NCBI GenBank assembly: GCA_951406725.2 | Contig: CATOCA020000012.1 | Location: forward strand, 51,442 to 115,441 | Reading direction: 5' to 3' | Origin: Octopus vulgaris | Lineage: Eukaryota | DNA: 64,000 bases | Part shown: positions 313 to 64,000 of the stretch, one piece after another | Layout of the letters: each line of letters starts with the position of its first letter | Numbering within the stretch: the first letter of the stretch is position 1 | Notes under the pieces: model-generated | What the model was told of the DNA's origin: nothing | Database searches by the model: none | The model's input: only the letters and a program-made list of their open reading frames with translations | Position numbers and translations under genes: made by a program

Positions 313-390
313 TTAGGGTTTAGGGTTAGGTTGGGGTTAGGGTTTAAGGTTAGGGTTAGTGTTTAAGGTTAGGGGTTGGGGTTAAGGGTT
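313..390 (+). repeat. Degenerate (TTAGGG)n telomere-type tract
   Basis: ttagggtttagggttaggttggggttagggtttaaggttaggg... Confidence 0.85.
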
Positions 391-528
391 CTTCAAGAGC
401 TGCACTTAATGTTGCGTGTGTCCGTGTTTCTGGGTCGCAATTTTTGAACCATTCGTAAAGCATCAGGTAGACTTGTTTTACAGCGTCAATAGACTCATCA
501 TCAATTTTCAGTTCAGTTGTATCAACTC
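389..528 (-). pseudogene. Truncated exon encoding the C-terminal half of a putative death domain
   Basis: Minus strand: pyrimidine tract plus AG acceptor (CTATTTTTTTAG|G, AG at 530-529), then GVDTTELKIDDESIDAVKQVYLMLYEWFKNCDPETRTHATLSAALEE. This resembles the death-domain pattern (LG..., QxYxMLxxW, ATLxxALEE). The frame runs directly into the telomeric tract. Confidence 0.45.
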
Positions 529-1157
529 CTAAAAAAATAGCTGCGAAATACGCAACAATAAGAAATAAATGCAACAACCTTAACAATATTAACAATAATA
601 TAAAAGATGTGTGTTGTTATAAACATAACAAAGAAACTATTTCAAGAGAGAAATATAAAAAATATAGCTAAGAAACAAGAAAACTATAAGACGTTGTTAT
701 TTATATCTTTATAAATCCGAGTAAAATTACATAATGGATTTTAAAAAAACAAAGAAAAAATGAAATAAAATTTATGTTCCTGAAACAAAAAAGTGAAACA
801 GAATGTATACTCATACGTGTGTGTATTGTGTCGATGTATATATAATAAAAAAACAGTCTATATATTTATACTGGCGACAAGTGCGAGTGTCAATAGTTTA
901 TTATACATTGATTCGTATATGGCTTCCTTTATTGAATTCTAATTCAGAAAGATTGAAATCAATTCACTATTCACGAGTGAGTTCATATTCTTATGTATAT
1001 GTACATATAAACACATTAAACAAGAAAGAATGTCTTTATGTATTGTCATGCGTGTGTTTATATGTGTGTGTGTGTGTTATATTAGTTCTCAACAAGACAT
1101 ATTGGTACAAGGTTATCAAGGTAACAATGTCTTTATTATTATTATTATTATTATTAC

Positions 1158-1242
1158 GTTCTGAGTTCAAATTCCGCCGAGGGGTCCTACCGGGGTCGAT
1201 TAAATAAGTACCAGTTACGCGCTGGGGTCGATGTAATCGAAT
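1158..1242 (+). mobile_element. tRNA-derived SINE fragment (cephalopod-type), preceded by (TTA)n
   Basis: B-box-like GAGTTCAAATTCC followed by GGGGTCGAT...AAGTACCAGT...CTGGGGTCGATGTAATCGA. Confidence 0.55.
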
Positions 1243-1403
1243 TCTGGTTTGCACGCACAACGGTAGGAACCTAGGAAATTCTGACATATGGCACCATAAC
1301 GACAAGGATTCCTTAAACACTCGTTGATGTCTGAAAAATGAAGCAGAAATTTTATTATTTTCAAAATTATTTGAAGCAAAGAAAGAGTATTTCAATGGAA
1401 ATT

Positions 1404-1817
1404 GAGCCCTAACTCTACCCCTAACCCCTAACCCGAACCCCTTCTGTAACACTGAACCCCGAGACCACTTCTGTGACCACCCGAGACCCCATCTGTGACC
1501 CCACTTCTAGAGACTAACCCAAACCCCTGACCATGTGAGTCCCTCATCCCTGTGACAAGCGAGACCCCTTCCTGTGCCCAACCAATTCCGGAGACCCCAC
1601 CAATTCCCGAGACTAACACTAGCCCTAACTCTAACCCGAACCCATTCTGTAACCCTGAACCCCCGAGACCACTTTTGTGACCACCAGAGACCCCATCTGT
1701 GACCCAAATTCCAGAGACTAACCCAAACCCCTGACCATGTGAGCCCCTCATCCCTGTGACAAGCGAGACCCCTTCCTGTGAACCAAAACAAATTCCCGAG
1801 ACCCAACAAATTCCCGA
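1404..1817. repeat. Two tandem copies of a ~217-bp C-rich unit containing telomere-like hexamers
   Basis: AGCCCTAACTCTA at 1404 and 1621; shared CCGAGACC, CCCTGACCATGTGAG, CCCTGTGACAAGCGAGACCCCTTCCTGTG. Confidence 0.85.
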
Positions 1818-2352
1818 CCCTAACCCTAACCCTAACCCGAACACCACGAATTCCCGAGACTAACCCTAACCCTAACCCTAACCCGAACACCACGAATTCC
1901 CGAGACTAACCCTAACCCTAACCCTAACCCGAACACCACGAATTCCCGAGACTAACCCTAACCCTAACCCTAACCCGAACACCACAAATTCCCGAGACCA
2001 ACCCTAACCCTAACCCTAACCCTAACCCTAACCCAACTAACCCTAACCCTAACCCTAACCCTAACCCTAACCCTAACCCAACCTAACCCTAACCCTAACC
2101 CTAACCCTAACCCTAACCCAACCCTAACCCTAACCCTAACCCTAACCCTAACCCACAACCCCAACCCTAACCCTAACCCTAACCCTAACCCTAACCCTAA
2201 CCCAAACCCTAACCCAACCCTAACCCTAACCCTAACCCTAACCCTAACCCCAACCCAACTAACCCTAACCCTAACCCTAACCCGAACACCACAAATTCCC
2301 GAGACTAACCCTAACCCTAACCCTAACCCGAACACCACAAATTCCCGAGACT
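1818..2352. repeat. 46-bp telomere-hybrid unit CCCGAACACCAC(G/A)AATTCCCGAGACTAA(CCCTAA)3, six copies, interleaved with (CCCTAA)n
   Basis: CCCGAACACC starts at 1836, 1882, 1928, 1974, 2281 and 2327 (46-bp steps within each cluster). Confidence 0.9.
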
Positions 2353-2916
2353 TAACCCTAACCCTAACCCTAACCCTAACCCTAACCCTAACCCTAACCT
2401 ACTAACCCAACCCAAACCCCAACCCCAACCCTAACCCAACCCAACCCCAACCCAACCCAACCCTAACCCTAACCCTAACCCTAACCCTAACCCTAACCCT
2501 AACCCTAACCCTAACCCTAACCCTAACCCTAACCCAACCCCAACCCTAACCCTAACCCTAACCCTAACCCAACCCTAACCCTAACCCAACCCTAACCCAA
2601 CCCTAACCCTAACCCAACCCAACCCTAACCCTAACCCTAACCCTAACCCTAACCCTAACCCTAACCCTAACCCTAACCCTAACCCTAACCCTAACCCTAA
2701 CCCTAACCCTAACCCTAACCCTAACCCTAACCCTAACCCTAACCCTAACCCTAACCCTAACCCCAACCCTAACCCTAACCCCAACCCAACCCAACCCAAC
2801 CCCAACCCAACCAACCCTAACCCTAACCCTAACCCTAACCCTAACCCTAACCCTAACCCTAACCCTAACCCTAACCCTAACCAACCCCAACCCAACCCAA
2901 CCCTAACCCAACCCTA
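2000..2916 (-). repeat. (CCCTAA)n telomeric tract with CCCAA/CCCCAA variants
   Basis: Direct read of canonical metazoan telomere repeat, G-rich strand on minus. Confidence 0.95.
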
Positions 2917-3580
2917 AGATAACTAAACCCAAAACTCTTCCAGGGTTACCTCCCTTACATCTAATTAAATTACTATTATGTATTATTAAATTGAAATGTT
3001 CAAGGGAAGTAACTCTAGAAAGGGAGATAACTAAAAAAAAATCTCCCAGTTACCTCCCTTACATCTAATTCAATTACTATTATTTGTTATTAAATTAATG
3101 TATTCAAGGGGAGTAACTCTAGGAAGGGAGATTTACTCCCCTTGAATACTTCAATTTAATAACACAATAGTAATTTAATTAGATAAAGGGAGGTAACTCT
3201 GGAAGATTTTTTTTAGTTATCTCCCTTTCTAGAGTTACTCCCCTTGAACATTTCAATTTAATAATACATATTAATTTAATTAGATGTAAGGGAGGTAACT
3301 CTGGAAGATTTTTTAGTTCTCTACAGAGGAAGATAACTAAAAAATCTTCCAGAGTTACCTCCCTTATATCTAATTAAATTACTATTATGTATTATTAAAT
3401 TGAAATGTTCAAGGGGAGTAACTCTAGAAAGGGAGATAACTAAAAGATCTTCCAGAGTTACCTCCCTTACATCTAATTGAATTACTAATATGTATTATTA
3501 AATTGAAATATTCAAGGGGAGTAAATCTCCTAGAGATATATAAAAAAATCTTCAAAAGTTACCTCCCTTACATTTAATTA
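2917..3580. repeat. AT-rich ~105-bp telomere-adjacent repeat with orientation switches
   Basis: Recurrent AAGGGGAGTAACTCTAGAAAGGGAGATAACT and AGTTACCTCCCTTACATCTAATT; orientation flips near 3130 and 3325. Confidence 0.85.
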
Positions 3581-3651
3581 AATAACGACTATTATCAAAC
3601 TGTGTCATGGAAGCTAATTAACTCTACAATATAATGTTCAGACGTAACACT

Positions 3652-3850
3652 TTTACTCCTTTCCTTGTTTAGTCATTTCAATGTGCCCATGCTGGAGCAC
3701 AGCGTTTTCTAGAGCAAATCGACACTAGGACTTTTATCTACGTCAGTCTAGTATTTATTCTGTTGGTCTTCTTTTCCCGAACGGATAGGTTAATGGAGTG
3801 TAAAATTCACCGACATCGCTTGTGAAACGGTTTTGGGGACATCGAAACAC
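3652..3850 (-). mobile_element. Degenerate SINE (copies at ~11170-11370 and, inverted, ~48935-49130)
   Basis: CCATGCTGGAGCAC...AGCAAATCGACACTAGGACT...AGTATTTATTCT; related to fragments at 6250-6375, 24930-25110, 27380-27520. Confidence 0.55.
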
Positions 3851-3915
3851 ACACATATATACATATATATAAACATCTATATGTATATACATGTTTCTCT
3901 CTCTATATATATATT

Positions 3916-4761
3916 GCAGAAACAATACTGCTGTCTTTAGTGTTCCCACTGATATTGACGTAAGAGAAGCGAACGAAGTTGACTCCCAACACAAAATTGC
4001 AGACATAACCTTCACTCCCTCTGACATCGTAGCAGCAATAAATGAGGTCAAATACTACTCTGCTGTAGGCCCTGATAGATTCCCCGTTAGTCTCCTGAAG
4101 GAATGTAAACACCAACTTGCAGTCCCACTGACCAACCTCTGGAGAAATTCGTTAGATGCAGGTATATACCAAAACAGTTTCTATCCCAGTCAGTCATCCC
4201 GGTTTTCAAACAGGGAAACAGATCCCTCGCACTCAACTATCGCCCAATCTCACTCACCTCCCACATCATAAAAGTGTTTGAAAGGGTGTTAAGATCAAGG
4301 ATGGCTGACTTCCTGGAGACCCACAAACTCCTATATGCAAATCAGCATGGCTTTCGCTGTGGCAGGGACTGTCTAACACGGCTCTGACACCACATTGAAG
4401 ATGTACTCAAAGCCTTGGGAACAGGTTCGAACTCTGATGTCATATATCTTGACTTCAGTAAAGCGTTCGACAGGGTAGACCATAATATCCTACTCTCAAA
4501 ATTGGCAAATGTTGGAATCCGTGGAAAAGTTCTACACTGGATCAAGTATTTCCTGGCGAATACAACACAACATGTTGTAGTTGATGGAGTCCACTCAAGC
4601 CAAGCAAAAGTCACCAGCGGTGTCCCTCAGGGGTCTGTCTTGGGTCCGCTACTCTTCATAATCTACATAAACGACCTTTCCAGTGTCGTACATTACTGCA
4701 AAGTGAACATATTTGCTGATGACACCAAGCTCCAGCAAATCGTCAATGAAGAAGCAGACCG
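3916..4761 (+). pseudogene. Non-LTR (LINE, CR1/L2/Jockey-group-like) reverse transcriptase fragment, copy 1
   Basis: SAVGPD..F, [frameshift ~4170] VIPVFKQG..NYRPISLTS, NQHGFR, in-frame TGA at ~4385, YLDFSKAFDRVDH, GVPQGSVLGPLLF, FADDTKL; truncated at both ends. Confidence 0.92.
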
Positions 4762-5310
4762 ATCCAGGTATGTAGATACGGGGTGCTTAACACTCGCAAA
4801 TCTGGAGTCACTAAAGGTGCAATTGAACTTCTTTTCATTTAGAACTTAGGGATCTGCAAATGTCGGTATCTTAGAGATGCTTAAAGTGTTTGTTCTAGCT
4901 GTAATTGTCGCATACAAACAGACGCTCACACACGTATACACAGAAATAAAAACATTCACACAAACACAAACACTGAAATGAAAACAGTTACATACCTACA
5001 CATGCACACACACAAATAGAAATGAAAATAGTCACACACAAACATACGCACCCACACAGAAATGAAAACGCAGTTACACATTCACACATAAAACCCTAAC
5101 TAGCATAAACATACAATTTATTCAGAATGTAGAGGGGCATTGGGTGCTTTGCACTCGCAGTTAGAATATCAGCTCCCTCCACGCCAGAATTAGAATTTCT
5201 GTCATCCACTTGTGAAATTAATACATTGACGACACATGGGAAAAATATGAGCAACATCTGAAGCCACTAAAGGTGCAATAAATTGAACTTATTTGTATTA
5301 GTAGTTAGTG
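4762..5310 (+). repeat. CA-rich dispersed module beginning ATCCAGGTATGTAGATACGG (copies at 12281 and 25668; inverted copies ending at 28619 and 48029)
   Basis: Shared CTAAAGGTGCAAT..TTGAACTT, GGGATCTGCAAATGT, GGGGCATTGGGTGCTTTGCACTCGCAGTTAGAATATCAGC. Confidence 0.8.
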
Positions 5311-5323
5311 ATATATGAATATC

Positions 5324-5490
5324 GACGTAGGAATGGCTGTTGTAAGTAGTTTGCTTACGAACCACATGGTTTCGGGTTCATTCCCACTGCCTGTCATCTT
5401 CTGCAATTGTTACTATTGTAGCCCAGGGCCTAGCTAATCCTTGTGATGGGATTTAGTGGAAGGAAATTGATAGAATCTCGTCGTATATAC
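5324..5490 (+). mobile_element. tRNA-headed SINE (copies at ~12843-13010 and, inverted, ~45555-45722)
   Basis: A-box-like TGGCTGTTGTAAG, B-box-like GGGTTCATTCCC, body ending CTCGTCGTATATA followed by (TG)n. Confidence 0.6.
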
Positions 5491-5496
5491 GTTTAA

Positions 5497-5753
5497 ATGT
5501 GTGTGTGTGTGTGCATGTGTGTGTGTGTGTGTGTGCGTGTGTGCGTGTGTGCGTGCGTGCGTGTGTTTGTGTGTGTCTGTGTATGTTCGCACTCGAAGGG
5601 CACACGAGAATGCACGCACGTACTATCACACATACAGATGCAAGTTTTCTTAATAAAACGGAATGAACTCCCATTCCATCCCTTACAGTTTCTTTTTTGT
5701 TTTAGATACTACATATACGTGTGTTGGTATATTCACGTATATCTGTATGTATA

Positions 5754-5819
<66 letters not shown>

Positions 5820-5900
5820 TATATATATAAATATATATACGACGCTATGTACGACATATAAATACACAAACACATACATGTGTGTGTGTGTGTGTATATA
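5497..5900. repeat. (TG)n and (TA)n microsatellite cluster
   Basis: Direct read; tract lengths differ among the copies at 13017-13400 and 45135-45547. Confidence 0.9.
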
Positions 5901-6447
5901 TGAAGGTGCAATAAATTGACTTATTTTGATTTAGTATTTAGTGATCACAAATGTGGGTATCTTACAAATGGTCAAAGTGTTTGTTGTAGTTGTAAGTGAC
6001 GTACACACAAACAAATAGAAAAACTCAGTCGCTCACACACTCGCGCACACAGAAATAAAAACTCTCACACACAAACACTGAAATGAAAATACCCACACTC
6101 ACATAAATAAAAACAGTCCCCCACACACAAGGAGCCCCAATAGGTCTATCAAAAAAGTTTCTAGTATTTTTCCTGGCCCATAATTTATGATAATTGAAAT
6201 TCTTACAATAAATAAATAACTACTAAATAAGTATATCGAACATTACATCCCCGTAACTTATCGGTTCTGCAAAAGAGACCTATACATTAAGTAATAGGCA
6301 TACAAAGAATAATTTCTGGGCTTGATTTGCTTCACTAAAGGCGGTGCTCCACCATGGTCGCAGTGAAATAACGGAAAGAGTCTAAGAGCGACAAAGCGTA
6401 TATTACGATAACTACATACTTAAGGGAGATAACTACTTAAGGGAGGT

Positions 6448-9400
6448 AATTACGTGGCCCTGAATTACATGCACCTGAATGTCCTGCCCCTTAATTACAT
6501 GGCCCTGAATTACATGGCCCTGAATTACATGACCCTGTATTACCTGCCCTTGAATTACCTGTACCTGAGTTACATGTCCCTGAATTACATGCACCTGAAT
6601 TACCTGCCCGTCAATTACCTTCCCCTGAATTACATATCCCTGAATTACATGTCCCTGAATGACATTCCTCTAAATTACCAACCGCTGCATTACCTGCCCC
6701 TGGATTACATTACCCCTGAATTACCCGCCCCTGAATTACATGCCCGAATTACATGCCCCTGAATTTCATGCCCCTGAATTAACTGCCCCTCAATTACCTG
6801 CTCCTTAATTACATGGCCCTGAATTTCCTGCCCCTTAATTACATGCCCCTGTATTACCTGCCCTTGAATTACCTGCCCCTGAGTTACATGTCCCTGAATT
6901 ACCTGCCCCTCAATTACCTTTCCCTGAATTACATGCCCCTGAATTACATGTCCCGGAATTATCTGCCAATGAATGACATTCCTCTAAATTACCTGCCCCT
7001 GAATTACATACCCCTGAATTACCTTCCCCTAAATTACATGCATCTGAATTACCTGCCCCTGAATTACAAACACCTGAATTAGATGCCCCTGAATTACCTG
7101 CCCCTCAATTACATGCACATGAATGACCTGACCCTGAATGATATGCCCCTCAATTATCTATCCCTAAATTACCTGCCCCGGAATTACCTGCCCGTGAATG
7201 TCATGCCCCTGGATTAACTGCCCCTGAATTACATGCCCCTGAATAACATACACCAGAATAAGATACACCTGAATTACCTGCCCCAAAATTAAATACCCCT
7301 GAATTACCTGCCCCTAAATTACATGCATCTGAATTACATGGCCCTGAATTATCTGCCCCTCAATTACATGCCTCTTAATTACATGCACCTGTATGACCTG
7401 ACCCTGAATTATCTATCCCTAAATTACCTGCCCATGAATTACCTGCCCGTGAATGACATGCCCCTGAATTACCTGCACCTAGATTACCTGCCCCAGAATT
7501 ACATGCCCCTGAATTACCTGCCCATGAATGACATTCCTCTAAATTACCTGTCCCTGAATTACCTTCCTCTGAATTACCCACCCATGAATTACATGCCCCT
7601 GAATTACATGCCCCTGAATTACCTACCCCTGAATTAACTACCCCTCAATTACATGCCCCTGGATTACCTAACCCAGAATTACATGCACCTGGATTACCTA
7701 ACCCAGAATTACATGCACCTGAATTACATGCCCCTTAATTACATGCCCCTGAATTACCTGCACCTGAATGACATGCCCCTGAATTACCTCCCCCTGAATT
7801 ACCATCCCCTGAATTTCATGCCCATGAATTACCTGCCCCTGAATGACCTGCCCCTTAATTACATACCCCTGGATTACCTGTCCCTGAATAACCTATACCT
7901 GAATAACCTGACACTCAATAATCTGCCCCTGAAGTTCCTGCCCCTAAATTACCTTCCCCTGAATTACATGCCCCTGAATTACCTGCCCATGAATTACATG
8001 CACCTGAATTACATGCCCCTGAATTACATACACCTGAATTACCTGCCCCTGAGTCTGAATTACCTGCTCCTGAATTACATACACCTGAATTACATGCCTT
8101 TGAATTAACTGCCCCTAAATTATGGGCCCCTGAATTACCTGTCGCTGAATGACATGCCCCTCAATCACCAGCCCATGAATGACATTCCTATAAATTACCT
8201 GTCCCTGAATTACCCCTGAATTACCTTCCCCTGAATTACCTGCCCCTGAATTACCTGCCCCTCAATCACCTGCGCATGAATGACATCCCTATAAATTACC
8301 TTTCCCTGAATTACCCCTGAATTACACTCTAAATTACCGGCCCCTGAATTACATGCCCCTGAATTACATGCCCCTGATTACCTGCCCCTAAATTACCTGC
8401 CCATGAATGACATTCCTCTAAATTACCTGTCCCTGAATTACCCCTGAATTACCTTCCCCTGAAATATATTGCTCTGAATTACCCACCCACGAATTACATG
8501 CCCCTGAATTACCTACCCCTGAATTACATACACCTGAATTACATGCCCCTCAATTACCTGCACCTCAATTACATGCCCCTGAATTACATGCACCTGAATT
8601 ACCTGCACCTGAATTACATGGCCCTGAAATACATTGCTCTGAATTCCCCACCAACGAATTACATGCCCTTGAATTACATGCCCCTGAATTACCTTCCCCA
8701 GAATTACATACATCTGAATTACATGCCCCTCAATTACCTGCACCTCAATTCCATGCCCCTGAATTACATGCCCCTGAATTACATAAACCCTGAATTACCT
8801 GCCCCTCAATTACCTGCGTCTGAATTACCTTGCTCTGAATGACATGCCCCTTAATTACTTAACCCTGAAGTACCTGCCCCTGAATTACCTGCCACTAAAT
8901 TACATGCATCTAAATTACATGCATCTGAATTACCTGCCCCTGAATTACAAACACCTGAATTACATGACCCTGAATTACCTGCCCCTCAATTACATGTCTC
9001 TTAATTACATGCACCTGAATGACCTGCCCCTGAATGACATGTCTCTGAATTGTCTATCCCTAAATTATCTGCCCCTGAATTACCTGCCCGTGAATGACAT
9101 ACCCCTGAAATACCTGCACCTAGATTACCTGCCCCTGAATTACATTTCATCTGAATTACCTGCCCATGAATGACATTCCTATAAATTACCTGTCCCTAAA
9201 TTACCCCTGAATTACATTCCTCTGAATTACCTGCCCCTGAATTACCTGCCCCTGGATTACCTTCCCCTCAATTACCCGCCCATGAATTACATGCCCCTGA
9301 ATTAAATGCCCCTGAATTACATACATCTGAATTATCAGCTCCTGAATTACATGCCCCTGAATTATCTGCCTCTGAGTCCCTGAATTACATGCCCGTGAAT

Positions 9401-9900
9401 TACCTGCCCCTCAATTACCTACCCATGAATTACATACACCTGAATTACCTGCCCGTGAATTACCTGCCCCTAAAATACATGCCCCTGAATGACATGCCCC
9501 TCAATTACCTGCCCATGAATTACATGCCCCTGAACTACCTGCCCCTTAATTACATGTCCCTGAATTATCTGCCAATGAATGACATACCTCTAAATTACCT
9601 GCCCCTGAATTACATACCCCTGAATTACCTGCCTCTAAATTACTACATGCATCTGAATTACCTGCCCCTGAATTACAAACACCTGAATTACCTGCCCCTC
9701 AATTACATGCCTCTTAATTACATGCACATGAATGATCTGACCCTGAATGATATGCCCCTGAATTATCTATCCCTAAATTACCTGCCCGGAATTACCTGCC
9801 AGTGAATGACACACCTCTGGATTAACTGCCCCTGAATAACCTGCCCCTGAATAACATACACCTGAATTACCTTCCCCAGAATTACATGCCCCTGAATTAC
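6448..9900 (+). repeat. 15-bp satellite, consensus AATTAC(A/C)TGCCCCTG, copy 1 (cut by gap)
   Basis: 15-bp periodicity; produces the spurious (Y-[ML]-P-L-N)n ORFs. Confidence 0.95.
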
Positions 9901-10000
9901 NNNNNNNNNNNNNNNNNNNNNNNNNNNNNNNNNNNNNNNNNNNNNNNNNNNNNNNNNNNNNNNNNNNNNNNNNNNNNNNNNNNNNNNNNNNNNNNNNNNN
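9901..10000. other. Scaffolding gap (100 N)
   Basis: Exactly 100 N, a typical unknown-size join. Confidence 0.98.
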
Positions 10001-10410: not shown

Positions 10411-11100
10411 TTTAATAATATGCGAGGGGAGTAACTCTAGAAAGGGAGATAACTAAAAAAAACTCTTCCAGGGTTACCTCCCTTACATCTAATTAAATTA
10501 CTATTATGTATTATTAAATTGAAATGTTCAAGGGAAGTAACTCTAGAAAGGGAGATAACTAAAAAAAATCTCCCAGTTACCTCCCTTATATCTAATTCAA
10601 TTACTATTATTTGTTATTAATTTAATGTATTCAAGGGGAGTAACTCTAGGAAGGGAGATTTACTCCCCTTGAATACTTCAATTTAATAACACAATAGTAA
10701 TTTAATTAGATAAAGGAGGTAACTCTGGAAGATTTTTTAGTTATCTCCTTTCTAGAGTTATCCCTTGAACATTTCAATTTAATAATACATATTAATTTAA
10801 TTAGATGTAAGGGAGGTAACTCTGGAAGATTTTTTAGTTCTCTACAGAGGAAGATAACTAAAAAATCTTCCAGAGTTACCTCCCTTATATCTAATTAAAT
10901 TACTATTATGTATTATTAAATTGAAATGTTCAAGGGGAGTAACTCTAGAAAGGGAGATAACTAAAAGATCTTCCAGAGTTACCTCCCTTACATCTAATTG
11001 AATTACTAATATGTATTATTAAATTGAAATATTCAAGGGGAGTAAATCTCCTAGAGATATATAAAAAAATCTTCAAAAGTTACCTCCCTTACATTTAATT
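10411..11100. repeat. AT-rich ~105-bp telomere-adjacent repeat, copy 2
   Basis: Matches 2917-3580 and, inverted, 49200-49896. Confidence 0.85.
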
Positions 11101-11434
11101 AAATAACGACTATTATCAAACTGTGTCATGGAAGCTAATTAACTCTACAATATAATGTTCAGACGTAACACTTTTACTCCTTTCCTTGTTTAGTCATTTC
11201 AATGTGCCCATGCTGGAGCACAGCGTTTTCTAGAGCAAATCGACACTAGGACTTTTATCTACGTCAGTCTAGTATTTATTCTGTTGGTCTTCTTTTCCCG
11301 AACGGATAGGTTAATGGAGTGTAAAATTCACCGACATCGCTTGTGAAACGGTTTTGGGGACATCGAAACACACACATATATACATATATATAAACATCTA
11401 TATGTATATACATGTTTCTCTCTATATATATATT

Positions 11435-13015: not shown

Positions 13016-13075
<60 letters not shown>

Positions 13076-13274: not shown

Positions 13275-13341
<67 letters not shown>

Positions 13342-24718: not shown

Positions 24719-24720
24719 AG

Positions 24721-45131: not shown

Positions 45132-45170
<39 letters not shown>

Positions 45171-46406: not shown

Positions 46407-46451
<45 letters not shown>

Positions 46452-46597: not shown

Positions 46598-46673
<76 letters not shown>

Positions 46674-53000: not shown

Positions 53001-56000
53001 CAGGCCAGGCCAGGCCAGGCCAGGCCAGGCCAGGCCAGGCCAGGCCAGGCCAGGCCAGGCCAGGCCAGGCCAGGCCAGGCCAGGCCAGGCCAGGCCAGGC
53101 CAGGCCAGGCCAGGCCAGGCCAGGCCAGGCCAGGCCAGGCCAGGCCAGGCCAGGCCAGGCCAGGCCAGGCCAGGCCAGGCCAGGCCAGGCCAGGCCAGGC
53201 CAGGCCAGGCCAGGCCAGGCCAGGCCAGGCCAGGCCAGGCCAGGCCAGGCCAGGCCAGGCCAGGCCAGGCCAGGCCAGGCCAGGCCAGGCCAGGCCAGGC
53301 CAGGCCAGGCCAGGCCAGGCCAGGCCAGCCAGGCCAGGCCAGGCCAGGCCAGGCCAGGCCAGGCCAGGGCCAGGCCAGGCCAGGCCAGGCCAGGCCAGGC
53401 CAGGCCAGGCCAGGCCAGGCCAGGCCAGGCCAGGCCAGGCCAGGCCAGGCCAGGCCAGGCCAGGCCAGGCCAGGCCAGGCCAGGCCAGGCCAGGCCAGGC
53501 CAGGCCAGGCCAGGCCAGGCCAGGCCAGGCCAGGCCAGGCCAGGCCAGGCCAGGCCAGGCCAGGCCAGGCCAGGCCAGGCCAGGCCAGGCCAGGCCAGGC
53601 CAGGCCAGGCCAGGCCAGGCCAGGCCAGGCCAGGCCAGGCCAGGCCAGGCCAGGCCAGGCCAGGCCAGGCCAGGCCAGGCCAGGCCAGGCCAGGCCAGGC
53701 CAGGCCAGGCCAGGCCAGGCCAGGCCAGGCCAGGCCAGGCCAGGCCAGGCCAGGCCAGGCCAGGCCAGGCCAGGCCAGGCCAGGCCAGGCCAGGCCAGGC
53801 CAGGCCAGGCCAGGCCAGGCCAGGCCAGGCCAGGCCAGGCCAGGCCAGGCCAGGCCAGGCCAGGCCAGGCCAGGCCAGGCCAGGCCAGGCCAGGCCAGGC
53901 CAGGCCAGGCCAGGCCAGGCCAGGCCAGGCCAGGCCAGGCCAGGCCAGGCCAGGCCAGGCCAGGCCAGGCCAGGCCAGGCCAGGCCAGGCCAGGCCAGGC
54001 CAGGCCAGGCCAGGCCAGGCCAGGCCAGGCCAGGCCAGGCCAGGCCAGGCCAGGCCAGGCCAGGCCAGGCCAGGCCAGGCCAGGCCAGGCCAGGCCAGGC
54101 CAGGCCAGGCCAGGCCAGGCCAGGCCAGGCCAGGCCAGGCCAGGCCAGGCCAGGCCAGGCCAGGCCAGGCCAGGCCAGGCCAGGCCAGGCCAGGCCAGGC
54201 CAGGCCAGGCCAGGCCAGGCCAGGCCAGGCCAGGCCAGGCCAGGCCAGGCCAGGCCAGGCCAGGCCAGGCCAGGCCAGGCCAGGCCAGGCCAGGCCAGGC
54301 CAGGCCAGGCCAGGCCAGGCCAGGCCAGGCCAGGCCAGGCCAGGCCAGGCCAGGCCAGGCCAGGCCAGGCCAGGCCAGGCCAGGCCAGGCCAGGCCAGGC
54401 CAGGCCAGGCCAGGCCAGGCCAGGCCAGGCCAGGCCAGGCCAGGCCAGGCGCCAGGCCAGGCCAGGCCAGGCCAGGCCAGGCCAGGCCAGGCCAGGCCAG
54501 GCCAGGCCAGGCCAGGCCAGGCCAGGCCAGGCCAGGCCAGGCCAGGCCAGGCCAGGCCAGGCCAGGCCAGGCCAGGCCAGGCCAGGCCAGGCCAGGCCAG
54601 GCCAGGCCAGGCCAGGCCAGGCCAGGCCAGGCCAGGCCAGGCCAGGCCAGGCCAGGCCAGGCCAGGCCAGGCCAGGCCAGGCCAGGCCAGGCCAGGCCAG
54701 GCCAGGCCAGGCCAGGCCAGGCCAGGCCAGGCCAGGCCAGGCCAGGCCAGGCCAGGCCAGGCCAGGCCAGGCCAGGCCAGGCCAGGCCAGGCCAGGCCAG
54801 GCCAGGCCAGGCCAGGCCAGGCCAGGCCAGGCCAGGCCAGGCCAGGCCAGGCCAGGCCAGGCCAGGCCAGGCCAGGCCAGGCCAGGCCAGGCCAGGCCAG
54901 GCCAGGCCAGGCCAGGCCAGGCCAGGCCAGGCCAGGCCAGGCCAGGCCAGGCCAGGCCAGGCCAGGCCAGGCCAGGCCAGGCCAGGCCAGGCCAGGCCAG
55001 GCCAGGCCAGGCCAGGCCAGGCCAGGCCAGGCCAGGCCAGGCCAGCCAGCCAGGCCAGGCCAGGCCAGGCCAGGCCAGGCCAGGCCAGGCCAGGCCAGGC
55101 CAGGCCAGGCCAGGCCAGGCCAGGCCAGGCCAGGCCAGGCCAGGCCAGGCCAGGCCAGGCCAGGCCAGGCCAGGCCAGGCCAGGCCAGGCCAGGCCAGGC
55201 CAGGCCAGGCCAGGCCAGGCCAGGCCAGGCCAGGCCAGGCCAGGCCAGGCCAGGCCAGGCCAGGCCAGGCCAGGCCAGGCCAGGCCAGGCCAGGCCAGGC
55301 CAGGCCAGGCCAGGCCAGGCCAGGCCAGGCCAGGCCAGGCCAGGCCAGGCCAGGCCAGGCCAGGCCAGGCCAGGCCAGGCCAGGCCAGGCCAGGCCAGGC
55401 CAGGCCAGGCCAGGCCAGGCCAGGCCAGGCCAGGCCAGGCCAGGCCAGGCCAGGCCAGGCCAGGCCAGGCCAGGCCAGGCCAGGCCAGGCCAGGCCAGGC
55501 CAGGCCAGGCCAGGCCAGGCCAGGCCAGGCCAGGCCAGGCCAGGCCAGGCCAGGCCAGGCCAGGCCAGGCCAGGCCAGGCCAGGCCAGGCCAGGCCAGGC
55601 CAGGCCAGGCCAGGCCAGGCCAGGCCAGGCCAGGCCAGGCCAGGCCAGGCCAGGCCAGGCCAGGCCAGGCCAGGCCAGGCCAGGCCAGGCCAGGCCAGGC
55701 CAGGCCAGGCCAGGCCAGGCCAGGCCAGGCCAGGCCAGGCCAGGCCAGGCCAGGCCAGGCCAGGCCAGGCCAGGCCAGGCCAGGCCAGGCCAGGCCAGGC
55801 CAGGCCAGGCCAGGCCAGGCCAGGCCAGGCCAGGCCAGGCCAGGCCAGGCCAGGCCAGGCCAGGCCAGGCCAGGCCAGGCCAGGCCAGGCCAGGCCAGGC
55901 CAGGCCAGGCCAGGCCAGGCCAGGCCAGGCCAGGCCAGGCCAGGCCAGGCCAGGCCAGGCCAGGCCAGGCCAGGCCAGGCCAGGCCAGGCCAGGCCAGCC

Positions 56001-59000
56001 AGGCCAGGGCCAGGCCAGGCCAGGCCAGGCCAGGCCAGGCCAGGCCAGGCCAGGCCAGGCCAGGCCAGGCCAGGCCAGGCCAGGCCAGGCCAGGCCAGGC
56101 CAGGCCAGGCCAGGCCAGGCCAGGCCAGGCCAGGCCAGGCCAGGCCAGGCCAGGCCAGGCCAGGCCAGGCCAGGCCAGGCCAGGCCAGGCCAGGCCAGGC
56201 CAGGCCAGGCCAGGCCAGGCCAGGCCAGGCCAGGCCAGGCCAGGCCAGGCCAGGCCAGGCCAGGCCAGGCCAGGCCAGGCCAGGCCAGGCCAGGCCAGGC
56301 CAGGCCAGGCCAGGCCAGGCCAGGCCAGGCCAGGCCAGGCCAGGCCAGGCCAGGCCAGGCCAGGCCAGGCCAGGCCAGGCCAGGCCAGGCCAGGCCAGGC
56401 CAGGCCAGGCCAGGCCAGGCCAGGCCAGGCCAGGCCAGGCCAGGCCAGGCCAGGCCAGGCCAGGCCAGGCCAGGCCAGGCCAGGCCAGGCCAGGCCAGGC
56501 CAGGCCAGGCCAGGCCAGGCCAGGCCAGGCCAGGCCAGGCCAGGCCAGGCCAGGCCAGGCCAGGCCAGGCCAGGCCAGGCCAGGCCAGGCCAGGCCAGGC
56601 CAGGCCAGGCCAGGCCAGGCCAGGCCAGGCCAGGCCAGGCCAGGCCAGGCCAGGCCAGGCCAGGCCAGGCCAGGCCAGGCCAGGCCAGGCCAGGCCAGGC
56701 CAGGCCAGGCCAGGCCAGGCCAGGCCAGGCCAGGCCAGGCCAGGCCAGGCCAGGCCAGGCCAGGCCAGGCCAGGCCAGGCCAGGCCAGGCCAGGCCAGGC
56801 CAGGCCAGGCCAGGCCAGGCCAGGCCAGGCCAGGCCAGGCCAGGCCAGGCCAGGCCAGGCCAGGCCAGGCCAGGCCAGGCCAGGCCAGGCCAGGCCAGGC
56901 CAGGCCAGGCCAGGCCAGGCCAGGCCAGGCCAGGCCAGGCCAGGCCAGGCCAGGCCAGGCCAGGCCAGGCCAGGCCAGGCCAGGCCAGGCCAGGCCAGGC
57001 CAGGCCAGGCCAGGCCAGGCCAGGCCAGGCCAGGCCAGGCCAGGCCAGGCCAGGCCCAGGCCAGGCGCCAGGCCAGGCCAGGCCAGGCCAGGCCAGGCCA
57101 GGCCAGGCCAGGCCAGGCCAGGCCAGGCCAGGCCAGGCCAGGCCAGGCCAGGCCAGGCCAGGCCAGGCCAGGCCAGGCCAGGCCAGGCCAGGCCAGGCCA
57201 GGCCAGGCCAGGCCAGGCCAGGCCAGGCCAGGCCAGGCCAGGCCAGGCCAGGCCAGGCCAGGCCAGGCCAGGCCAGGCCAGGCCAGGCCAGGCCAGGCCA
57301 GGCCAGGCCAGGCCAGGCCAGGCCAGGCCAGGCCAGGCCAGGCCAGGCCAGGCCAGGCCAGGCCAGGCCAGGCCAGGCCAGGCCAGGCCAGGCCAGGCCA
57401 GGCCAGGCCAGGCCAGGCCAGGCCAGGCCAGGCCAGGCCAGGCCAGGCCAGGCCAGGCCAGGCCAGGCCAGGCCAGGCCAGGCCAGGCCAGGCCAGGCCA
57501 GGCCAGGGCCAGGCCAGGCCAGGCCAGGCCAGGCCAGGCCAGGCCAGGCCAGGCCAGGCCAGGCCAGGCCAGGCCAGGCCAGGCCAGGCCAGGCCAGGCC
57601 AGGCCAGGCCAGGCCAGGCCAGGCCAGGCCAGGCCAGGCCAGGCCAGGCCAGGCCAGGCCAGGCCAGGCCAGGCCAGGCCAGGCCAGGCCAGGCCAGGCC
57701 AGGCCAGGCCAGGCCAGGCCAGGCCAGGCCAGGCCAGGCCAGGCCAGGCCAGGCCAGGCCAGGCCAGGCCAGGCCAGGCCAGGCCAGGCCAGGCCAGGCC
57801 AGGCCAGGCCAGGCCAGGCCAGGCCAGGCCAGGCCAGGCCAGGCCAGGCCAGGCCAGGCCAGGCCAGGCCAGGCCAGGCCAGGCCAGGCCAGGCCAGGCC
57901 AGGCCAGGCCAGGCCAGGCCAGGCCAGGCCAGGCCAGGCCAGGCCAGGCCAGGCCAGGCCAGGCCAGGCCAGGCCAGGCCAGGCCAGGCCAGGCCAGGCC
58001 AGGCCAGGCCAGGCCAGGCCAGGCCAGGCCAGGCCAGGCCAGGCCAGGCCAGGCCAGGCCAGGCCAGGCCAGGCCAGGCCAGGCCAGGCCAGGCCAGGCC
58101 AGGCCAGGCCAGGCCAGGCCAGGCCAGGCCAGGCCAGGCCAGGCCAGGCCAGGCCAGGCCAGGCCAGGCCAGGCCAGGCCAGGCCAGGCCAGGCCAGGCC
58201 AGGCCAGGCCAGGCCAGGCCAGGCCAGGCCAGGCCAGGCCAGGCCAGGCCAGGCCAGGCCAGGCCAGGCCAGGCCAGGCCAGGCCAGGCCAGGCCAGGCC
58301 AGGCCAGGCCAGGCCAGGCCAGGCCAGGCCAGGCCAGGCCAGGCCAGGCCAGGCCAGGCCAGGCCAGGCCAGGCCAGGCCAGGCCAGGCCAGGCCAGGCC
58401 AGGCCAGGCCAGGCCAGGCCAGGCCAGGCCAGGCCAGGCCAGGCCAGGCCAGGCCAGGCCAGGCCAGGCCAGGCCAGGCCAGGCCAGGCCAGGCCAGGCC
58501 AGGCCAGGCCAGGCCAGGCCAGGCCAGGCCAGGCCAGGCCAGGCCAGGCCAGGCCAGGCCAGGCCAGGCCAGGCCAGGCCAGGCCAGGCCAGGCCAGGCC
58601 AGGCCAGGCCAGGCCAGGCCAGGCCAGGCCAGGCCAGGCCAGGCCAGGCCAGGCCAGGCCAGGCCAGGCCAGGCCAGGGCCAGGGCCAGGCCAGGCCAGG
58701 CCAGGCCAGGCCAGGCCAGGCCAGGCCAGGCCAGGCCAGGCCAGGCCAGGCCAGGCCAGGCCAGGCCAGGCCAGGCCAGGCCAGGCCAGGCCAGGCCAGG
58801 CCAGGCCAGGCCAGGCCAGGCCAGGCCAGGCCAGGCCAGGCCAGGCCAGGCCAGGCCAGGCCAGGCCAGGCCAGGCCAGGCCAGGCCAGGCCAGGCCAGG
58901 CCAGGCCAGGCCAGGCCAGGCCAGGCCAGGCCAGGCCAGGCCAGGCCAGGCCAGGCCAGGCCAGGCCAGGCCAGGCCAGGCCAGGCCAGGCCAGGCCAGG

Positions 59001-62000
59001 CCAGGGCCAGGCCAGGCCAGGCCAGGCCAGGCCAGGCCAGGCCAGGCCAGGCCAGGCCAGGCCAGGCCAGGCCAGGCCAGGCCAGGCCAGGCCAGGCCAG
59101 GCCAGGCCAGGCCAGGCCAGGCCAGGCCAGGCCAGGCCAGGCCAGGCCAGGCCAGGCCAGGCCAGGCCAGGCCAGGCCAGGCCAGGCCAGGCCAGGCCAG
59201 GCCAGGCCAGGCCAGGCCAGGCCAGGCCAGGCCAGGCCAGGCCAGGCCAGGCCAGGCCAGGCCAGGCCAGGCCAGGCCAGGCCAGGCCAGGCCAGGCCAG
59301 GCCAGGCCAGGCCAGGCCAGGCCAGGCCAGGCCAGGCCAGGCCAGGCCAGGCCAGGCCAGGCCAGGCCAGGCCAGGCCAGGCCAGGCCAGGCCAGGCCAG
59401 GCCAGGGCCAGGCCAGGCCAGGCCAGGCCAGGCCAGGCCAGGCCAGGCCAGGCCAGGCCAGGCCAGGCCAGGCCAGGCCAGGCCAGGCCAGGCCAGGCCA
59501 GGCCAGGCCAGGCCAGGCCAGGCCAGGCCAGGCCAGGCCAGGCCAGGCCAGGCCAGGCCAGGCCAGGCCAGGCCAGGCCAGGCCAGGCCAGGCCAGGCCA
59601 GGCCAGGCCAGGCCAGGCCAGGCCAGGCCAGGCCAGGCCAGGCCAGGCCAGGCCAGGCCAGGCCAGGCCAGGCCAGGCCAGGCCAGGCCAGGCCAGGCCA
59701 GGCCAGGCCAGGCCAGGCCAGGCCAGGCCAGGCCAGGCCAGGCCAGGCCAGGCCAGGCCAGGCCAGGCCAGGCCAGGCCAGGCCAGGCCAGGCCAGGCCA
59801 GGCCAGGCCAGGCCAGGCCAGGCCAGGCCAGGCCAGGCCAGGCCAGGCCAGGCCAGGCCAGGCCAGGCCAGGCCAGGCCAGGCCAGGCCAGGCCAGGCCA
59901 GGCCAGGCCAGGCCAGGCCAGGCCAGGCCAGGCCAGGCCAGGCCAGGCCAGGCCAGGCCAGGCCAGGCCAGGCCAGGCCAGGCCAGGCCAGGCCAGGCCA
60001 GGCCAGGCCAGGCCAGGCCAGGCCAGGCCAGGCCAGGCCAGGCCAGGCCAGGCCAGGCCAGGCCAGGCCAGGCCAGGCCAGGCCAGGCCAGGCCAGGCCA
60101 GGCCAGGCCAGGCCAGGCCAGGCCAGGCCAGGCCAGGCCAGGCCAGGCCAGGCCAGGCCAGGCCAGGCCAGGCCAGGCCAGGCCAGGCCAGGCCAGGCCA
60201 GGCCAGGCCAGGCCAGGCCAGGCCAGGCCAGGCCAGGCCAGGCCAGGCCAGGCCAGGGCCAGGCCAGGCCAGGCCAGGCCAGGCCAGGCCAGGCCAGGCC
60301 AGGCCAGGCCAGGCCAGGCCAGGCCAGGCCAGGCCAGGCCAGGCCAGGCCAGGCCAGGCCAGGCCAGGCCAGGCCAGGCCAGGCCAGGCCAGGCCAGGCC
60401 AGGCCAGGCCAGGCCAGGCCAGGCCAGGCCAGGCCAGGCCAGGCCAGGCCAGGCCAGGCCAGGCCAGGCCAGGCCAGGCCAGGCCAGGCCAGGCCAGGCC
60501 AGGCCAGGCCAGGCCAGGCCAGGCCAGGCCAGGCCAGGCCAGGCCAGGCCAGGCCAGGCCAGGCCAGGCCAGGCCAGGCCAGGCCAGGCCAGGCCAGGCC
60601 AGGCCAGGCCAGGCCAGGCCAGGCCAGGCCAGGCCAGGCCAGGCCAGGCCAGGCCAGGCCAGGCCAGGCCAGGCCAGGCCAGGCCAGGCCAGGCCAGGCC
60701 AGGCCAGGCCAGGCCAGGCCAGGCCAGGCCAGGCCAGGCCAGGCCAGGCCAGGCCAGGCCAGGCCAGGCCAGGCCAGGCCAGGCCAGGCCAGGCCAGGCC
60801 AGGCCAGGCCAGGCCAGGCCAGGCCAGGCCAGGCCAGGGCCAGGCCAGGCCAGGCCAGGCCAGGCCAGGCCAGGCCAGGCCAGGCCAGGCCAGGCCAGGC
60901 CAGGCCAGGCCAGGCCAGGCCAGGCCAGGCCAGGCCAGGCCAGGCCAGGCCAGGCCAGGCCAGGCCAGGCCAGGCCAGGCCAGGCCAGGCCAGGCCAGGC
61001 CAGGCCAGGCCAGGCCAGGCCAGGCCAGGCCAGGCCAGGCCAGGCCAGGCCAGGCCAGGCCAGGCCAGGCCAGGCCAGGCCAGGCCAGGCCAGGCCAGGC
61101 CAGGCCAGGCCAGGCCAGGCCAGGCCAGGCCAGGCCAGGCCAGGCCAGGCCAGGCCAGGCCAGGCCAGGCCAGGCCAGGCCAGGCCAGGCCAGGCCAGGC
61201 CAGGCCAGGCCAGGCCAGGCCAGGCCAGGCCAGGCCAGGCCAGGCCAGGCCAGGCCAGGCCAGGCCAGGCCAGGCCAGGCCAGGCCAGGCCAGGCCAGGC
61301 CAGGCCAGGCCAGGCCAGGCCAGGCCAGGCCAGGCCAGGCCAGGCCAGGCCAGGCCAGGCCAGGCCAGGCCAGGCCAGGCCAGGCCAGGCCAGGCCAGGC
61401 CAGGCCAGGCCAGGCCAGGCCAGGCCAGGCCAGGCCAGGCCAGGCCAGGCCAGGCCAGGCCAGGCCAGGCCAGGCCAGGCCAGGCCAGGCCAGGCCAGGC
61501 CAGGCCAGGCCAGGCCAGGCCAGGCCAGGCCAGGCCAGGCCAGGCCAGGCCAGGCCAGGCCAGGCCAGGCCAGGCCAGGCCAGGCCAGGCCAGGCCAGGC
61601 CAGGCCAGGCCAGGCCAGGCCAGGCCAGGCCAGGCCAGGCCAGGCCAGGCCAGGCCAGGCCAGGCCAGGCCAGGCCAGGCCAGGCCAGGCCAGGCCAGGC
61701 CAGGCCAGGCCAGGCCAGGCCAGGCCAGGCCAGGCCAGGCCAGGCCAGGCCAGGCCAGGCCAGGCCAGGCCAGGCCAGGCCAGGCCAGGCCAGGCCAGGC
61801 CAGGCCAGGCCAGGCCAGGCCAGGCCAGGCCAGGCCAGGCCAGGCCAGGCCAGGCCAGGCCAGGCCAGGCCAGGCCAGGCCAGGCCAGGCCAGGCCAGGC
61901 CAGGCCAGGCCAGGCCAGGCCAGGCCAGGCCAGGCCAGGCCAGGCCAGGCCAGGCCAGGCCAGGCCAGGCCAGGCCAGGCCAGGCCAGGCCAGGCCAGGC

Positions 62001-63027
62001 CAGGCCAGGCCAGGCCAGGCCAGGCCAGGCCAGGCCAGGCCAGGCCAGGCCAGGCCAGGCCAGGCCAGGCCAGGCCAGGCCAGGCCAGGCCAGGCCAGGC
62101 CAGGCCAGGCCAGGCCAGGCCAGGCCAGGCCAGGCCAGGCCAGGCCAGGCCAGGCCAGGGCCAGGCCAGGCCAGGCCAGGCCAGGCCAGGCCAGGCCAGG
62201 CCAGGCCAGGCCAGGCCAGGCCAGGCCAGGCCAGGCCAGGCCAGGCCAGGCCAGGCCAGGCCAGGCCAGGCCAGGCCAGGCCAGGCCAGGCCAGGCCAGG
62301 CCAGGCCAGGCCAGGCCAGGCCAGGCCAGGCCAGGCCAGGCCAGGCCAGGCCAGGCCAGGCCAGGCCAGGCCAGGCCAGGGCCAGGCCAGGCCAGGCCAG
62401 GCCAGGCCAGGCCAGGCCAGGCCAGGCCAGGCCAGGCCAGGCCAGGCCAGGCCAGGCCAGGCCAGGCCAGGCCAGGCCAGGCCAGGCCAGGCCAGGCCAG
62501 GCCAGGCCAGGCCAGGCCAGGCCAGGCCAGGCCAGGCCAGGCCAGGCCAGGCCAGAGGCCAGGCCAGCCAGGCCAGGCCAGGCCAGGCCAGGCCAGGCCA
62601 GGCCAGGCCAGGCCAGGCCAGGCCAGGCCAGGCCAGGCCAGGCCAGGCCAGGCCAGGCCAGGCCAGGCCAGGCCAGGCCAGGCCAGGCCAGGCCAGGCCA
62701 GGCCAGGCCAGGCCAGGCCAGGCCAGGCCAGGCCAGGCCAGGCCAGGCCAGGCCAGGCCAGGCCAGGCCAGGCCAGGCCAGGCCAGGCCAGGCCAGGCCA
62801 GGCCAGGCCAGGCCAGGCCAGGCCAGGCCAGGCCAGGCCAGGCCAGGCCAGGCCAGGCCAGGCCAGGCCAGGCCAGGCCAGGCCAGGCCAGGCCAGGCCA
62901 GGCCAGGCCAGGCCAGGCCAGGCCAGGCCAGGCCAGGCCAGGCCAGGCCAGGCCAGGCCAGGCCAGGCCAGGCCAGGCCAGGCCAGGCCAGGCCAGGCCA
63001 GGCCAGGCCAGGCCAGGCCAGGCCAGG
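50018..63027 (+). repeat. ~13-kb (CCAGG)n array (~2600 units) with scattered CCAGGG; possibly miscalled (TTAGGG)n
   Basis: Direct read; flanked by TTAGGG on both sides and located where the mirror arm has (CCCTAA)n. Confidence 0.9.
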
Positions 63028-63030
63028 GAG

Positions 63031-63181
63031 GGTTAGGTTTAGGGTTAGGGTTTGGGTTAGGGTTAGGGTTAGGGTTGGGGTTGGGGTTGGGGTTGGGGTT
63101 GGGGTTGGGGTTGGGGTTGGGGTTAGGTTTAGGTTTAGGGTTAGGGTTAGGGTTAGGGTTAGGGTTAGGGTTAGGGTTAGG
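63031..63181 (+). repeat. (TTAGGG)n/(TTGGGG)n telomere-type tract
   Basis: Direct read. Confidence 0.92.
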
Positions 63182-63205
63182 TGTTTGAACCGAGTCAAGT
63201 GTGAA

Positions 63206-64000
63206 ATGGAGCCTGTTGAGTGTCGAGCAGTGATCCGGTTTTTGTATTTGAAAGGATCCACACCACGGGAGACTTTTGATGAAATGAAAGTAACTTATGG
63301 TGATGATGCCCCATCATATGACCTTGTAAAACGCTGGCATCGTGAATTCAAACATGGTCGGAACTCTGTGGAAACAGCTCCCAGATCTGGTCGCCCTTTC
63401 TGCCATTGATGAGGCATCTGTCCGTCAAGTTGAGGCTGCCATTTTGGAAGATCGATGCATAATTATTCGCCAAATAGCCCATGAGGTCAAGATTAGTACC
63501 AGGTCTGTGGAAACTATCATTCATGACCATTTGCATATGCAAAAGGTGTCTGCCAGATGGATTCCCAGGTTGCTCACGCCTTTCCAGAAGCAAGAACGCG
63601 TCGAGTGCTCGAGGGTGAATTTGGAGATGTGCCAAGAAGATGAGTCAAAATTTTTCAAAAGACTGATTACACAAGATGAAACCTGGGTCCATCACGATGA
63701 TCCAGAGACCAAAGCCCAGTCAATGCACCGTGGCTCACCCCCTCCAAAGAAGGCAAGGGTGCAGCCCTCCGCTGGCAAGATCATGCTCACAGTCTTCTGG
63801 GACCAGGACGGAGTAGTGATGACAGATTTCTTGGCAAAGGGTACCACAATTGCAGGAGCCTATTATGCTTCACTTTTGAGGAAATTAAGAGAAGTTATCA
63901 AAATGAAGAGGCGGGGCAAGTTCAGCAAAGGCATCCTCCTCCTGCAGGACAACACTCCGGTCCACAACTCGCTTGTCGCCAGATCAGAAGCACAGGCGTA
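63206..64000 (+). mobile_element. Mariner (Tc1/mariner) transposase pseudogene, frameshifted, runs off the window; no 5' TIR visible
   Basis: MEPVECRAVIRFL...VKRWHREFK.GR.S.E.APRSGRP (HTH region), frameshift ~63398, then KVSARWIPRLLT, ITQDETWVHH, SAGKIMLTVFWD, ILLLQDN. Confidence 0.93.

Follow-up and report, generated by a model that had tools for sequence, protein, structure and literature searches.

Telomere repeats beside truncated coding sequences in an Octopus vulgaris contig: a probable miscalled telomere, interstitial tracts of probably differing origin and inverted subtelomeric arms

Telomere repeats inside chromosomes have been described in several settings. Short interstitial telomeric sequences are known to originate when telomere repeats are added at a break that is then closed by end-joining (PMC7215372). 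Telomere-spanning arm fusions consist of a subtelomere, an inverted telomere tract and an internal break, and the real fusion tracts are mostly a few hundred bp long (PMC11293586). Synthesis primed between a telomere and an interstitial telomeric sequence, with fusion, is described in C. elegans, where fusion tracts of 47-232 bp are reported and a range of 35-800 bp is cited (10.1101/2022.09.04.506531). The TBE transposons of Oxytricha carry three open reading frames (ORFs), one of them for a DDE transposase, terminal inverted repeats (TIRs) of 78-117 bp tipped by a short telomeric motif, and a target-site duplication of the form ANT (PMC4724952). Fold-back duplication has as its signature inverted arms on either side of a short spacer (PMC3907307). 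Here these systems are compared with a 64,000-nucleotide stretch of Octopus vulgaris DNA (contig CATOCA020000012.1, positions 51,442 to 115,441 of the forward strand; hereafter the window). TTAGGG is an octopod telomere repeat according to a second-hand report (PMC6160780). The original prediction for this stretch singled out two places, 313-390 and 49200-63206, where a G-strand telomere tract follows an AT-rich repeat and runs into a broken coding sequence. It proposed telomere-to-break fusion or the insertion of a telomere-ended element resembling the TBEs.

The layout of the window was derived from a tandem-repeat search and a self-alignment (Table 1); the anatomy, the truncations, the paralogy of the arms and the composition of the tracts are direct observations. 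Both predicted junctions exist and both neighbours are cut. The prediction had passed over two (CCCTAA)n tracts (1817-2917, 10001-10410) as well as a large inverted repeat. The two predicted cases most likely have different causes. Known kinds of event together with a known artefact cover most of what is seen, and no TBE-like or other mobile element is needed. The preferred reading, to which we give a probability of about 50%, is that the window represents subtelomeric DNA of Octopus as rendered by a nanopore-type assembly, with a misjoin at site 2, an interstitial scar at site 1 and recombination at site 3. We infer the miscalling, the misjoin and the order of the repair events from the features set out below.

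Table 1. Features of the window in order of position; sites 1, 2 and 3 are its internal telomere-like tracts.
Feature	Position	Strand	Remarks
AT-rich hairpin-unit array, diverged copy	1..312		about 80-85% to arm arrays; palindrome centred near 118
Degenerate telomere tract (site 1)	313..390	+	3/13 units canonical; 19-bp internal periodicity
Last coding exon, Octopus ankyrin-RING-death-like family member	389..529	-	cut 15 codons before stop
Telomere-associated-type repeats: two 204-bp units, then 46-bp units	1409..2000	-
Internal (CCCTAA)n, 1.1 kb (site 3)	1817..2917	-	G-strand runs from arm 2 into 46/204-bp repeats and cut gene
Arm 2: AT-rich array, decayed LINE reverse-transcriptase (RT) fragment, SINE-like and microsatellite pieces, 15-bp satellite	2918..9900	+	ends at gap
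Scaffold gap, 100 N	9901..10000
(CCCTAA)n at contig start	10001..10410	-	a contig that ends, as is usual, in telomere repeats
Arm 3, left arm of inverted repeat	10411..26785	+	10.4-kb 15-bp satellite 13950-24336; 34-bp repeat
Spacer at inverted-repeat centre, 724 bp	26786..27509
Arm 4, inverted paralogue of arm 3	27510..49896	-	14.7-kb 15-bp satellite 29862-44588; extra 1.74-kb block 45735-47478
Garbled G-rich transition, 120 bp, starts TTAGG	49897..50016	+	arm 3 has clean telomere repeats at equivalent position
(GCCAG)n, 2,597 copies, no T; C-strand (CCTGG)n	50017..63027	+	read as nanopore-miscalled telomere
TTAGGG-like tract, 153 bp (site 2)	63029..63181	+	10/25 units canonical, 8 TTGGGG
5'-truncated, decayed mariner	63179..64000	+	ATG 63206; one frameshift near 63398; 3-codon deletion

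The predicted order at site 2 (AT-rich repeat, TTAGGG, mariner) needs correction: the array runs to 49896 and is followed by 120 bp of garbled sequence, 13,011 bp of (GCCAG)n and 153 bp of TTAGGG-like sequence. The (GCCAG)n tract contains no T over its whole 13,011 bp. Read on the minus strand between 50200 and 63020, 2,516 of its 2,556 units are exactly CCTGG and the deviants are changes in C or G length only. The real 15-bp satellite of the window shows a match of about 75% to its consensus. On the minus strand the order is CCCTAA, CCTGG, garbled C-rich sequence and arm terminus, with CCTGG lying between two telomere-like ends. In arms 2 and 3 the corresponding place is taken by CCCTAA, at the same base in arm 3 and 37 bp further in for arm 2. 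Nanopore basecallers are reported to render C-strand CCCTAA as CCCTGG (10.1101/2022.01.11.475254), and both CCTGG and TGGCCTGGCCTGGCC are listed as telomere miscall patterns (PMC10769321). The tract resembles these miscalls in its C-strand location, its motif, the correctly called repeats at its ends and its position at the end of a subtelomere, the error motif being continuous with CCCTAA. However, it differs from the cases published there in being mostly a 5-mer (2,516 CCTGG vs 18 CCCTGG) and in being fixed in an assembly.

The neighbouring arrays carry a compatible error pattern. Homopolymer losses make up 5 of 6 indels in 688 bp of the terminal arrays of arms 3 and 4, with 6 single-base losses in 700 bp, while 1,680 bp of arm interior contain none and arm 2 also lacks the losses of arms 3 and 4. 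Such clustering looks like the signature of low-coverage nanopore sequence. A genuine (GCCAG)n satellite was considered and rejected, with a few chances in a hundred left to it, on the lack of T, the absence of any similar run elsewhere in the window and the replacement of CCCTAA in a paralogous slot. We conclude that 49897-63181 is probably one full-length telomere, 13.3 kb as written. Its true length would be about 15.6 kb if each 5-mer stood for one hexamer, a hypothetical one-to-one mapping (cf. PMC12871981).

This putative telomere abuts a mariner (Pfam HTH_48, E 3.9e-10; Transposase_1, E 2.9e-20). The element had been described as cut 24 bp upstream of its ATG, and this is correct: the tract ends at 63181, the ATG stands at 63206 and 24 bp lie between. 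In two of 18 mariner relatives, compared as read-through translations, the match starts at 63180-63181 and about 30 further codons' worth of mutually similar upstream sequence is absent from the window. Because these two relatives share conserved upstream sequence, the mariner 5' end is missing. For the same reason the TTAGG at the junction was rejected as the start of a mariner TIR, since relatives carry more conserved sequence upstream. No part of the missing 5' region was found elsewhere in the window, where only weak short matches appear, and none of the 18 mariner matches has a telomere-coded start, a weak negative. Positions 63179-63181 would be common to tract and mariner, a 3-nt microhomology with a chance of 0.05 for a random blunt join; it rests on the translations of two mariner relatives from other organisms. 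The mariner protein is 82-94% identical to a sequence of the mantis shrimp Oratosquilla oratoria (94% over 64 residues), a likeness that suggests a possible horizontal transfer among marine animals.

At both predicted sites the G-strand does run into the cut sequence, in the wrong polarity for healing of that sequence. Polarity by itself need not mean an inserted element, because any internal tract has, by simple geometry, the healing polarity toward one flank and the "wrong" one toward the other. The proposed telomere-to-break fusion is a reasonable inference for the short tracts (313-390 and 1817-2917), while the telomere-ended element fails its tests. Sites 2 and 3 each present a subtelomere, an inverted tract and an internal breakpoint, and microhomology amounts to 2 nt at site 1 and 3 nt at site 2. 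The tract is shorter than a functional telomere at site 1 (78 bp) and site 3 (1.1 kb) but not at site 2 (at least 13 kb). The published fusion lengths fit 78 bp and 1.1 kb, not 13-16 kb. The window thus resembles the telomere-spanning arm fusions of PMC11293586 in its combination of subtelomere, inverted tract, internal break, 0-3 nt of microhomology and cuts through genes. It departs from them in that those arose somatically in cancers and mostly have short tracts, whereas site 2, seen here as assembly sequence, would span 13-16 kb.

Two explanations have to be weighed at site 2. According to the preferred one, this is a normal chromosome end, made of an AT-rich subtelomeric array and a full-length telomere with a C-strand that the basecaller rendered as CCTGG; a chimeric read, or an error of the assembler, would then have attached it to the interior of a mariner copy unrelated to it. 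There is a precedent for misjoined contigs that arose from single chimeric nanopore reads and from telomeric repeats (10.1101/866020). A misjoin is favoured because 13-16 kb corresponds to an intact telomere whereas published fusion tracts are short; for this site alone it takes roughly three chances in five, and a real fusion somewhat over a third. The refuting case named in advance, AT-rich repeat plus TTAGGG at a true chromosome end that was misjoined, is where site 2 points through its miscalled full-length telomere.

The second explanation extends to every internal junction. All would be real telomere-to-break fusions made by microhomology-mediated end joining, site 2 would keep a 13-16 kb interstitial telomere, and CCTGG would still be a miscall. 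The microhomologies of 2 and 3 nt fall within the 0-3 nt range of arm fusions, and inverted-orientation tracts were validated as fusions at 12 of 15 sites in cancer lines (PMC11293586). Moreover, three internal tracts in one window would rarely be expected from random chimeras, and the 63181 junction is clean and internal to the contig. However, the site-2 tract is as long as an intact telomere while the fusion tracts reported are significantly shorter, and the 99% uniformity of CCTGG would suggest one read or strand rather than a pile of both strands. Taken for all junctions together, this explanation is unlikely, although it keeps appreciable weight.

Several points weigh against the preferred reading. 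The microhomologies at sites 2 and 1 suit cellular end-joining better than a random chimera. Neither an N gap nor evident foreign sequence marks the 63181 junction, and the 153 bp beside the mariner could owe their correct calls to junction-spanning short reads. TTAAGG and TTGGGG, variants found at site 1, are among the named current-profile look-alikes of TTAGGG, and the degeneracy of that tract could be partly error. Finally, both the misjoin at site 2 and the nanopore-type platform are deduced from the letters of the assembly.

Site 1 points to an older event. Its 78 bp hold 13 hexamers with at most one mismatch, above chance: when 12,810 bp of the window outside the repeats were shuffled 200 times, at most 5 near-hexamers appeared, and the unshuffled background gave at most 2 (plus strand) and 4 (minus strand). 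The TTAGGG reported at this place is thus present, though very degenerate, and no two perfect telomere units are adjacent. Short interstitial telomeric sequences are defined by at least 4 units, mismatches below one per unit and an internal position, as found at 313-390. Relative to the arm arrays, the differences at site 1 are mainly substitutions and its variants are periodic. Because of this substitution-type divergence and periodicity, site 1 reads as real aged DNA. It is best read as a real, old interstitial telomere scar or repair junction. A break in the AT-rich array would have gained telomere repeats, in healing polarity on the AT-rich side. The capped break would then have been end-joined to a broken copy of a multicopy gene through a 2-nt microhomology (389-390, common to tract and exon; chance 0.16). 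Like the short interstitial telomeric sequences of PMC7215372, the tract is under 100 bp, degenerate and internal, with one flank in healing polarity; unlike the classic ones described there, with both flanks from one locus, its flanks are unrelated.

The same AT-rich family had been placed at both sites. AT-rich sequence is indeed found at both, but opposite ends of the array face the telomere repeats: the 112 bp that precede 313 score 79 in alignment with the inner end of an arm array but 24 with its telomere-side end. The 1..312 array thus has on its right the counterpart of the arm arrays' inner end, closing in a 22-bp hairpin. The telomere-side terminus lies elsewhere, near 113, where a small palindrome free of telomere repeats has its centre. 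The AT-rich unit, predicted as a 105-bp repeat, measures about 97-105 bp and is variable in the tandem-repeat search; diverged units without nearby telomere repeats also occur at 27127-27323 and 46809-47004. At window positions 2-234 the telomere-side terminus of the arm occurs twice, head to head, and telomere repeats are absent between the two copies. The telomere of arms 3 and 4 begins at the equivalent of that palindrome centre, hinting at hairpin centres as sites of breakage and telomere addition. The site-1 tract starts right after a perfect hairpin (291-312; 9-bp stem, 4-base loop), which could be a snap-back repair product.

The exon next to site 1 had been called abruptly cut, and its relatives agree. 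Matches obtained by tblastn stop at 389, whereas all 33 Octopus relatives go on in frame with AEC.. and 32 of them terminate 15-16 residues past the cut point. A natural exon end at 389 was rejected on this in-frame continuation. The left boundary of the exon is directly visible, and a splice acceptor is predicted near 528-530 from a T-run followed by AG. Identity is 80-96% to 32 of the 33 matches and 62% to the remaining one, all of them named Octopus vulgaris or O. sinensis proteins, which marks the window as Octopus DNA. The exon by itself has no Pfam match and full-length relatives give only weak Death matches (E 0.027 and 0.081); the label "death-like" is tentative because of this weakness. 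The missing exon end was not found elsewhere in the window, which holds only weak short matches to it. A telomere-coded tail is absent from the 33 longer protein matches and from the 4 of similar length, a weak negative since the junction need not be annotated. The ankyrin-RING-death-like family is expanded in Octopus, with near-identical last exons across many contigs.

Sites 1 and 3 flank a 1-kb gene fragment and both tracts point into it. The site-3 tract shifts gradually from pure repeats to 46-bp and 204-bp units, and two units are embedded inside it (at 2304 and 2350). Every 46-bp unit includes three telomere hexamers, and the repeats are oriented like the adjoining tract. Throughout 1409-2350 telomere hexamers are present in both unit types, and the 46-bp unit seems to have arisen from the 204-bp one by deletion. 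A subtelomeric arm would here have been joined via its telomere to an internal array that already contained hexamers in the same orientation. This is the pattern expected from recombination between a telomere and an interstitial telomeric sequence, in which the telomere 3' end would invade an internal telomere-like array; shared repeats could also have misled an assembler. As in the C. elegans case (10.1101/2022.09.04.506531), the telomere enters a same-orientation hexamer array and then unique DNA. However, the tracts given there are 47-232 bp long and come from telomerase mutants, while site 3 is 1.1 kb and its origin is deduced only.

A broader artefact would make assembly errors of all telomere-to-internal joins, including those at 390 and 1817-2917, and leave only the subtelomeric arms as real. 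The region is repeat-dense, a scaffold gap separates near-identical arm copies, nanopore-type error signatures are present and an assembler is known to have fused contigs at telomeric repeats (10.1101/866020). The lack of telomere-coded exon tails among the 33 and 4 database proteins, weak as it is, goes in the same direction. This explanation does not account well for site 1, which is short, diverged by substitution, placed on the inner end of its array and provided with microhomology. Simple end-to-end gluing also leaves the 46-bp units interleaved within the site-3 tract unexplained, and arm 2 is free of the homopolymer losses of arms 3 and 4. A wholly artefactual origin is decidedly unlikely.

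The arms themselves form a 39-kb inverted repeat of diverged paralogous copies, with outward telomere repeats at both ends of 10001-63181. Arms 3 and 4 differ by 5 substitutions in 1,680 bp and 12 in 1,936 bp (0.3-2% divergence), and arm 4 has 4.3 kb more satellite and the additional 1.74-kb block. These substitutions, the block and the difference in satellite length rule out a fold-back read (template, then complement) as the origin of the palindrome. The block edge runs on colinearly in paralogous modules, and arms 2 and 3 therefore share a derived deletion. Between arms 2 and 3 no substitution occurs in 1,698 bp and only whole satellite units differ. These near-identical arms lie on either side of the 100-N gap (2918-9900 and 10411-17400) and are likely alleles, false duplicates or very recent paralogues set side by side across it.

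The palindrome may be real, as a fold-back-derived acentric fragment or linear minichromosome: an inverted repeat without coding function, capped by telomeres on both sides and able to join chromosomes via them. The inversion of arms 3 and 4 about the spacer extends over 16-22 kb, telomere repeats face outward at both ends, and the differences between the arms exclude two passes of one molecule. Long inverted arms and a short spacer are shared with fold-back inverted duplications and form their signature (PMC3907307), but the arms diverge here by 0.3-2% and both end in telomere repeats. Against a real unit stand a left end that stops at the scaffold gap, a single copy seen in the window, the absence of a target-site duplication at the flanks compared and outer flanks that are unrelated. 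In addition, its centre falls in a 1-kb module with several paralogues in the window, a possible point of back-to-back misassembly, and it is also possible that the palindrome arose when two chromosome ends were misassembled in this way at the repeated central module. The chance that the unit is real is slim. Equally slim is that of the bolder proposal in which a non-coding telomere-capped palindrome of 40-55 kb, a minichromosome or cassette, has repeatedly been fused into germ-line chromosomes via full-length telomeres by microhomology, cutting genes and transposons.

A DNA transposon like the TBEs, inserted at both sites through telomere-bearing termini, is the least credible explanation and has almost no weight. 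Its one attraction is an inverted repeat whose terminal telomere repeats face outward, oriented as at TBE termini in Oxytricha (PMC4724952). Yet the palindrome lacks the ORFs and the fixed termini described there, shows no ANT duplication at the flanks compared and is ten times larger. No transposase was found within the unit (ORFs of 300-6450 and a Pfam scan, with the extra block of arm 4 and the centre outside the scan), and the only Pfam domain found in an arm is a broken LINE RT. Searched by tblastn, the mariner protein matches only from 63206 on, outside the unit, and the mariner is itself cut. Instead of TIRs of 78-117 bp with a fixed telomeric tip there are inverted arms of 16-22 kb with differing junction points: the termini differ between sites and between arms, arm 2 joining 37 bp further in, and tract lengths range from 78 bp to over 13 kb rather than a fixed 17 bp. 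No duplication of 3 bp or more was found at the flanks compared, where the longest common word is 5-6 nt and lies off the junctions; position 10001 abuts the gap and the window starts at base 1. The checks proposed with the original prediction, namely the missing exon half and the missing mariner 5' end within the window and target-site duplications at the flanks compared, gave nothing, and with differing array ends and no transposase its telomere-ended element is not sustained.

Other repeats recur within the arms. A decayed LINE-type RT fragment is present in each (3900-4770, 11420-12290 and 48010-48870; Pfam RVT_1, E 3e-18 for the first copy). A 34-bp tandem repeat in 11-12 copies closes the 15-bp satellite on its inner side in both arms of the inverted repeat (24350-24718 and 29446-29848). 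The satellite starts directly from a 17-21 bp motif that is also part of the AT-rich unit (6417-6460, 13919-13960, 44583-44625 and 27309-27360), and it takes the place of AT-rich units in an otherwise similar 1-kb module (27094-28118, 44589-45131 and 46777-47757). The 15-bp satellite and the AT-rich unit look like one repeat family. No Rfam match reached the gathering score in the window.

If the preferred reading is true, the 13-kb "GC-rich satellite" and the internal telomere would flag a hidden chromosome end and a likely misjoin in the octopus assembly. The window would then also be a first look at an Octopus subtelomere, made of an AT-rich hairpin array and a 15-bp satellite; no description of one was found among the matches listed in literature searches. 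The telomere-capped palindrome is the only feature worth a check at the level of reads and, if free or mobile, would represent an animal telomere-capped element of a new kind. If site 2 were real, an intact telomere of 13-16 kb would have been fused internally in a wild animal, contradicting the rule that only short telomeres fuse.

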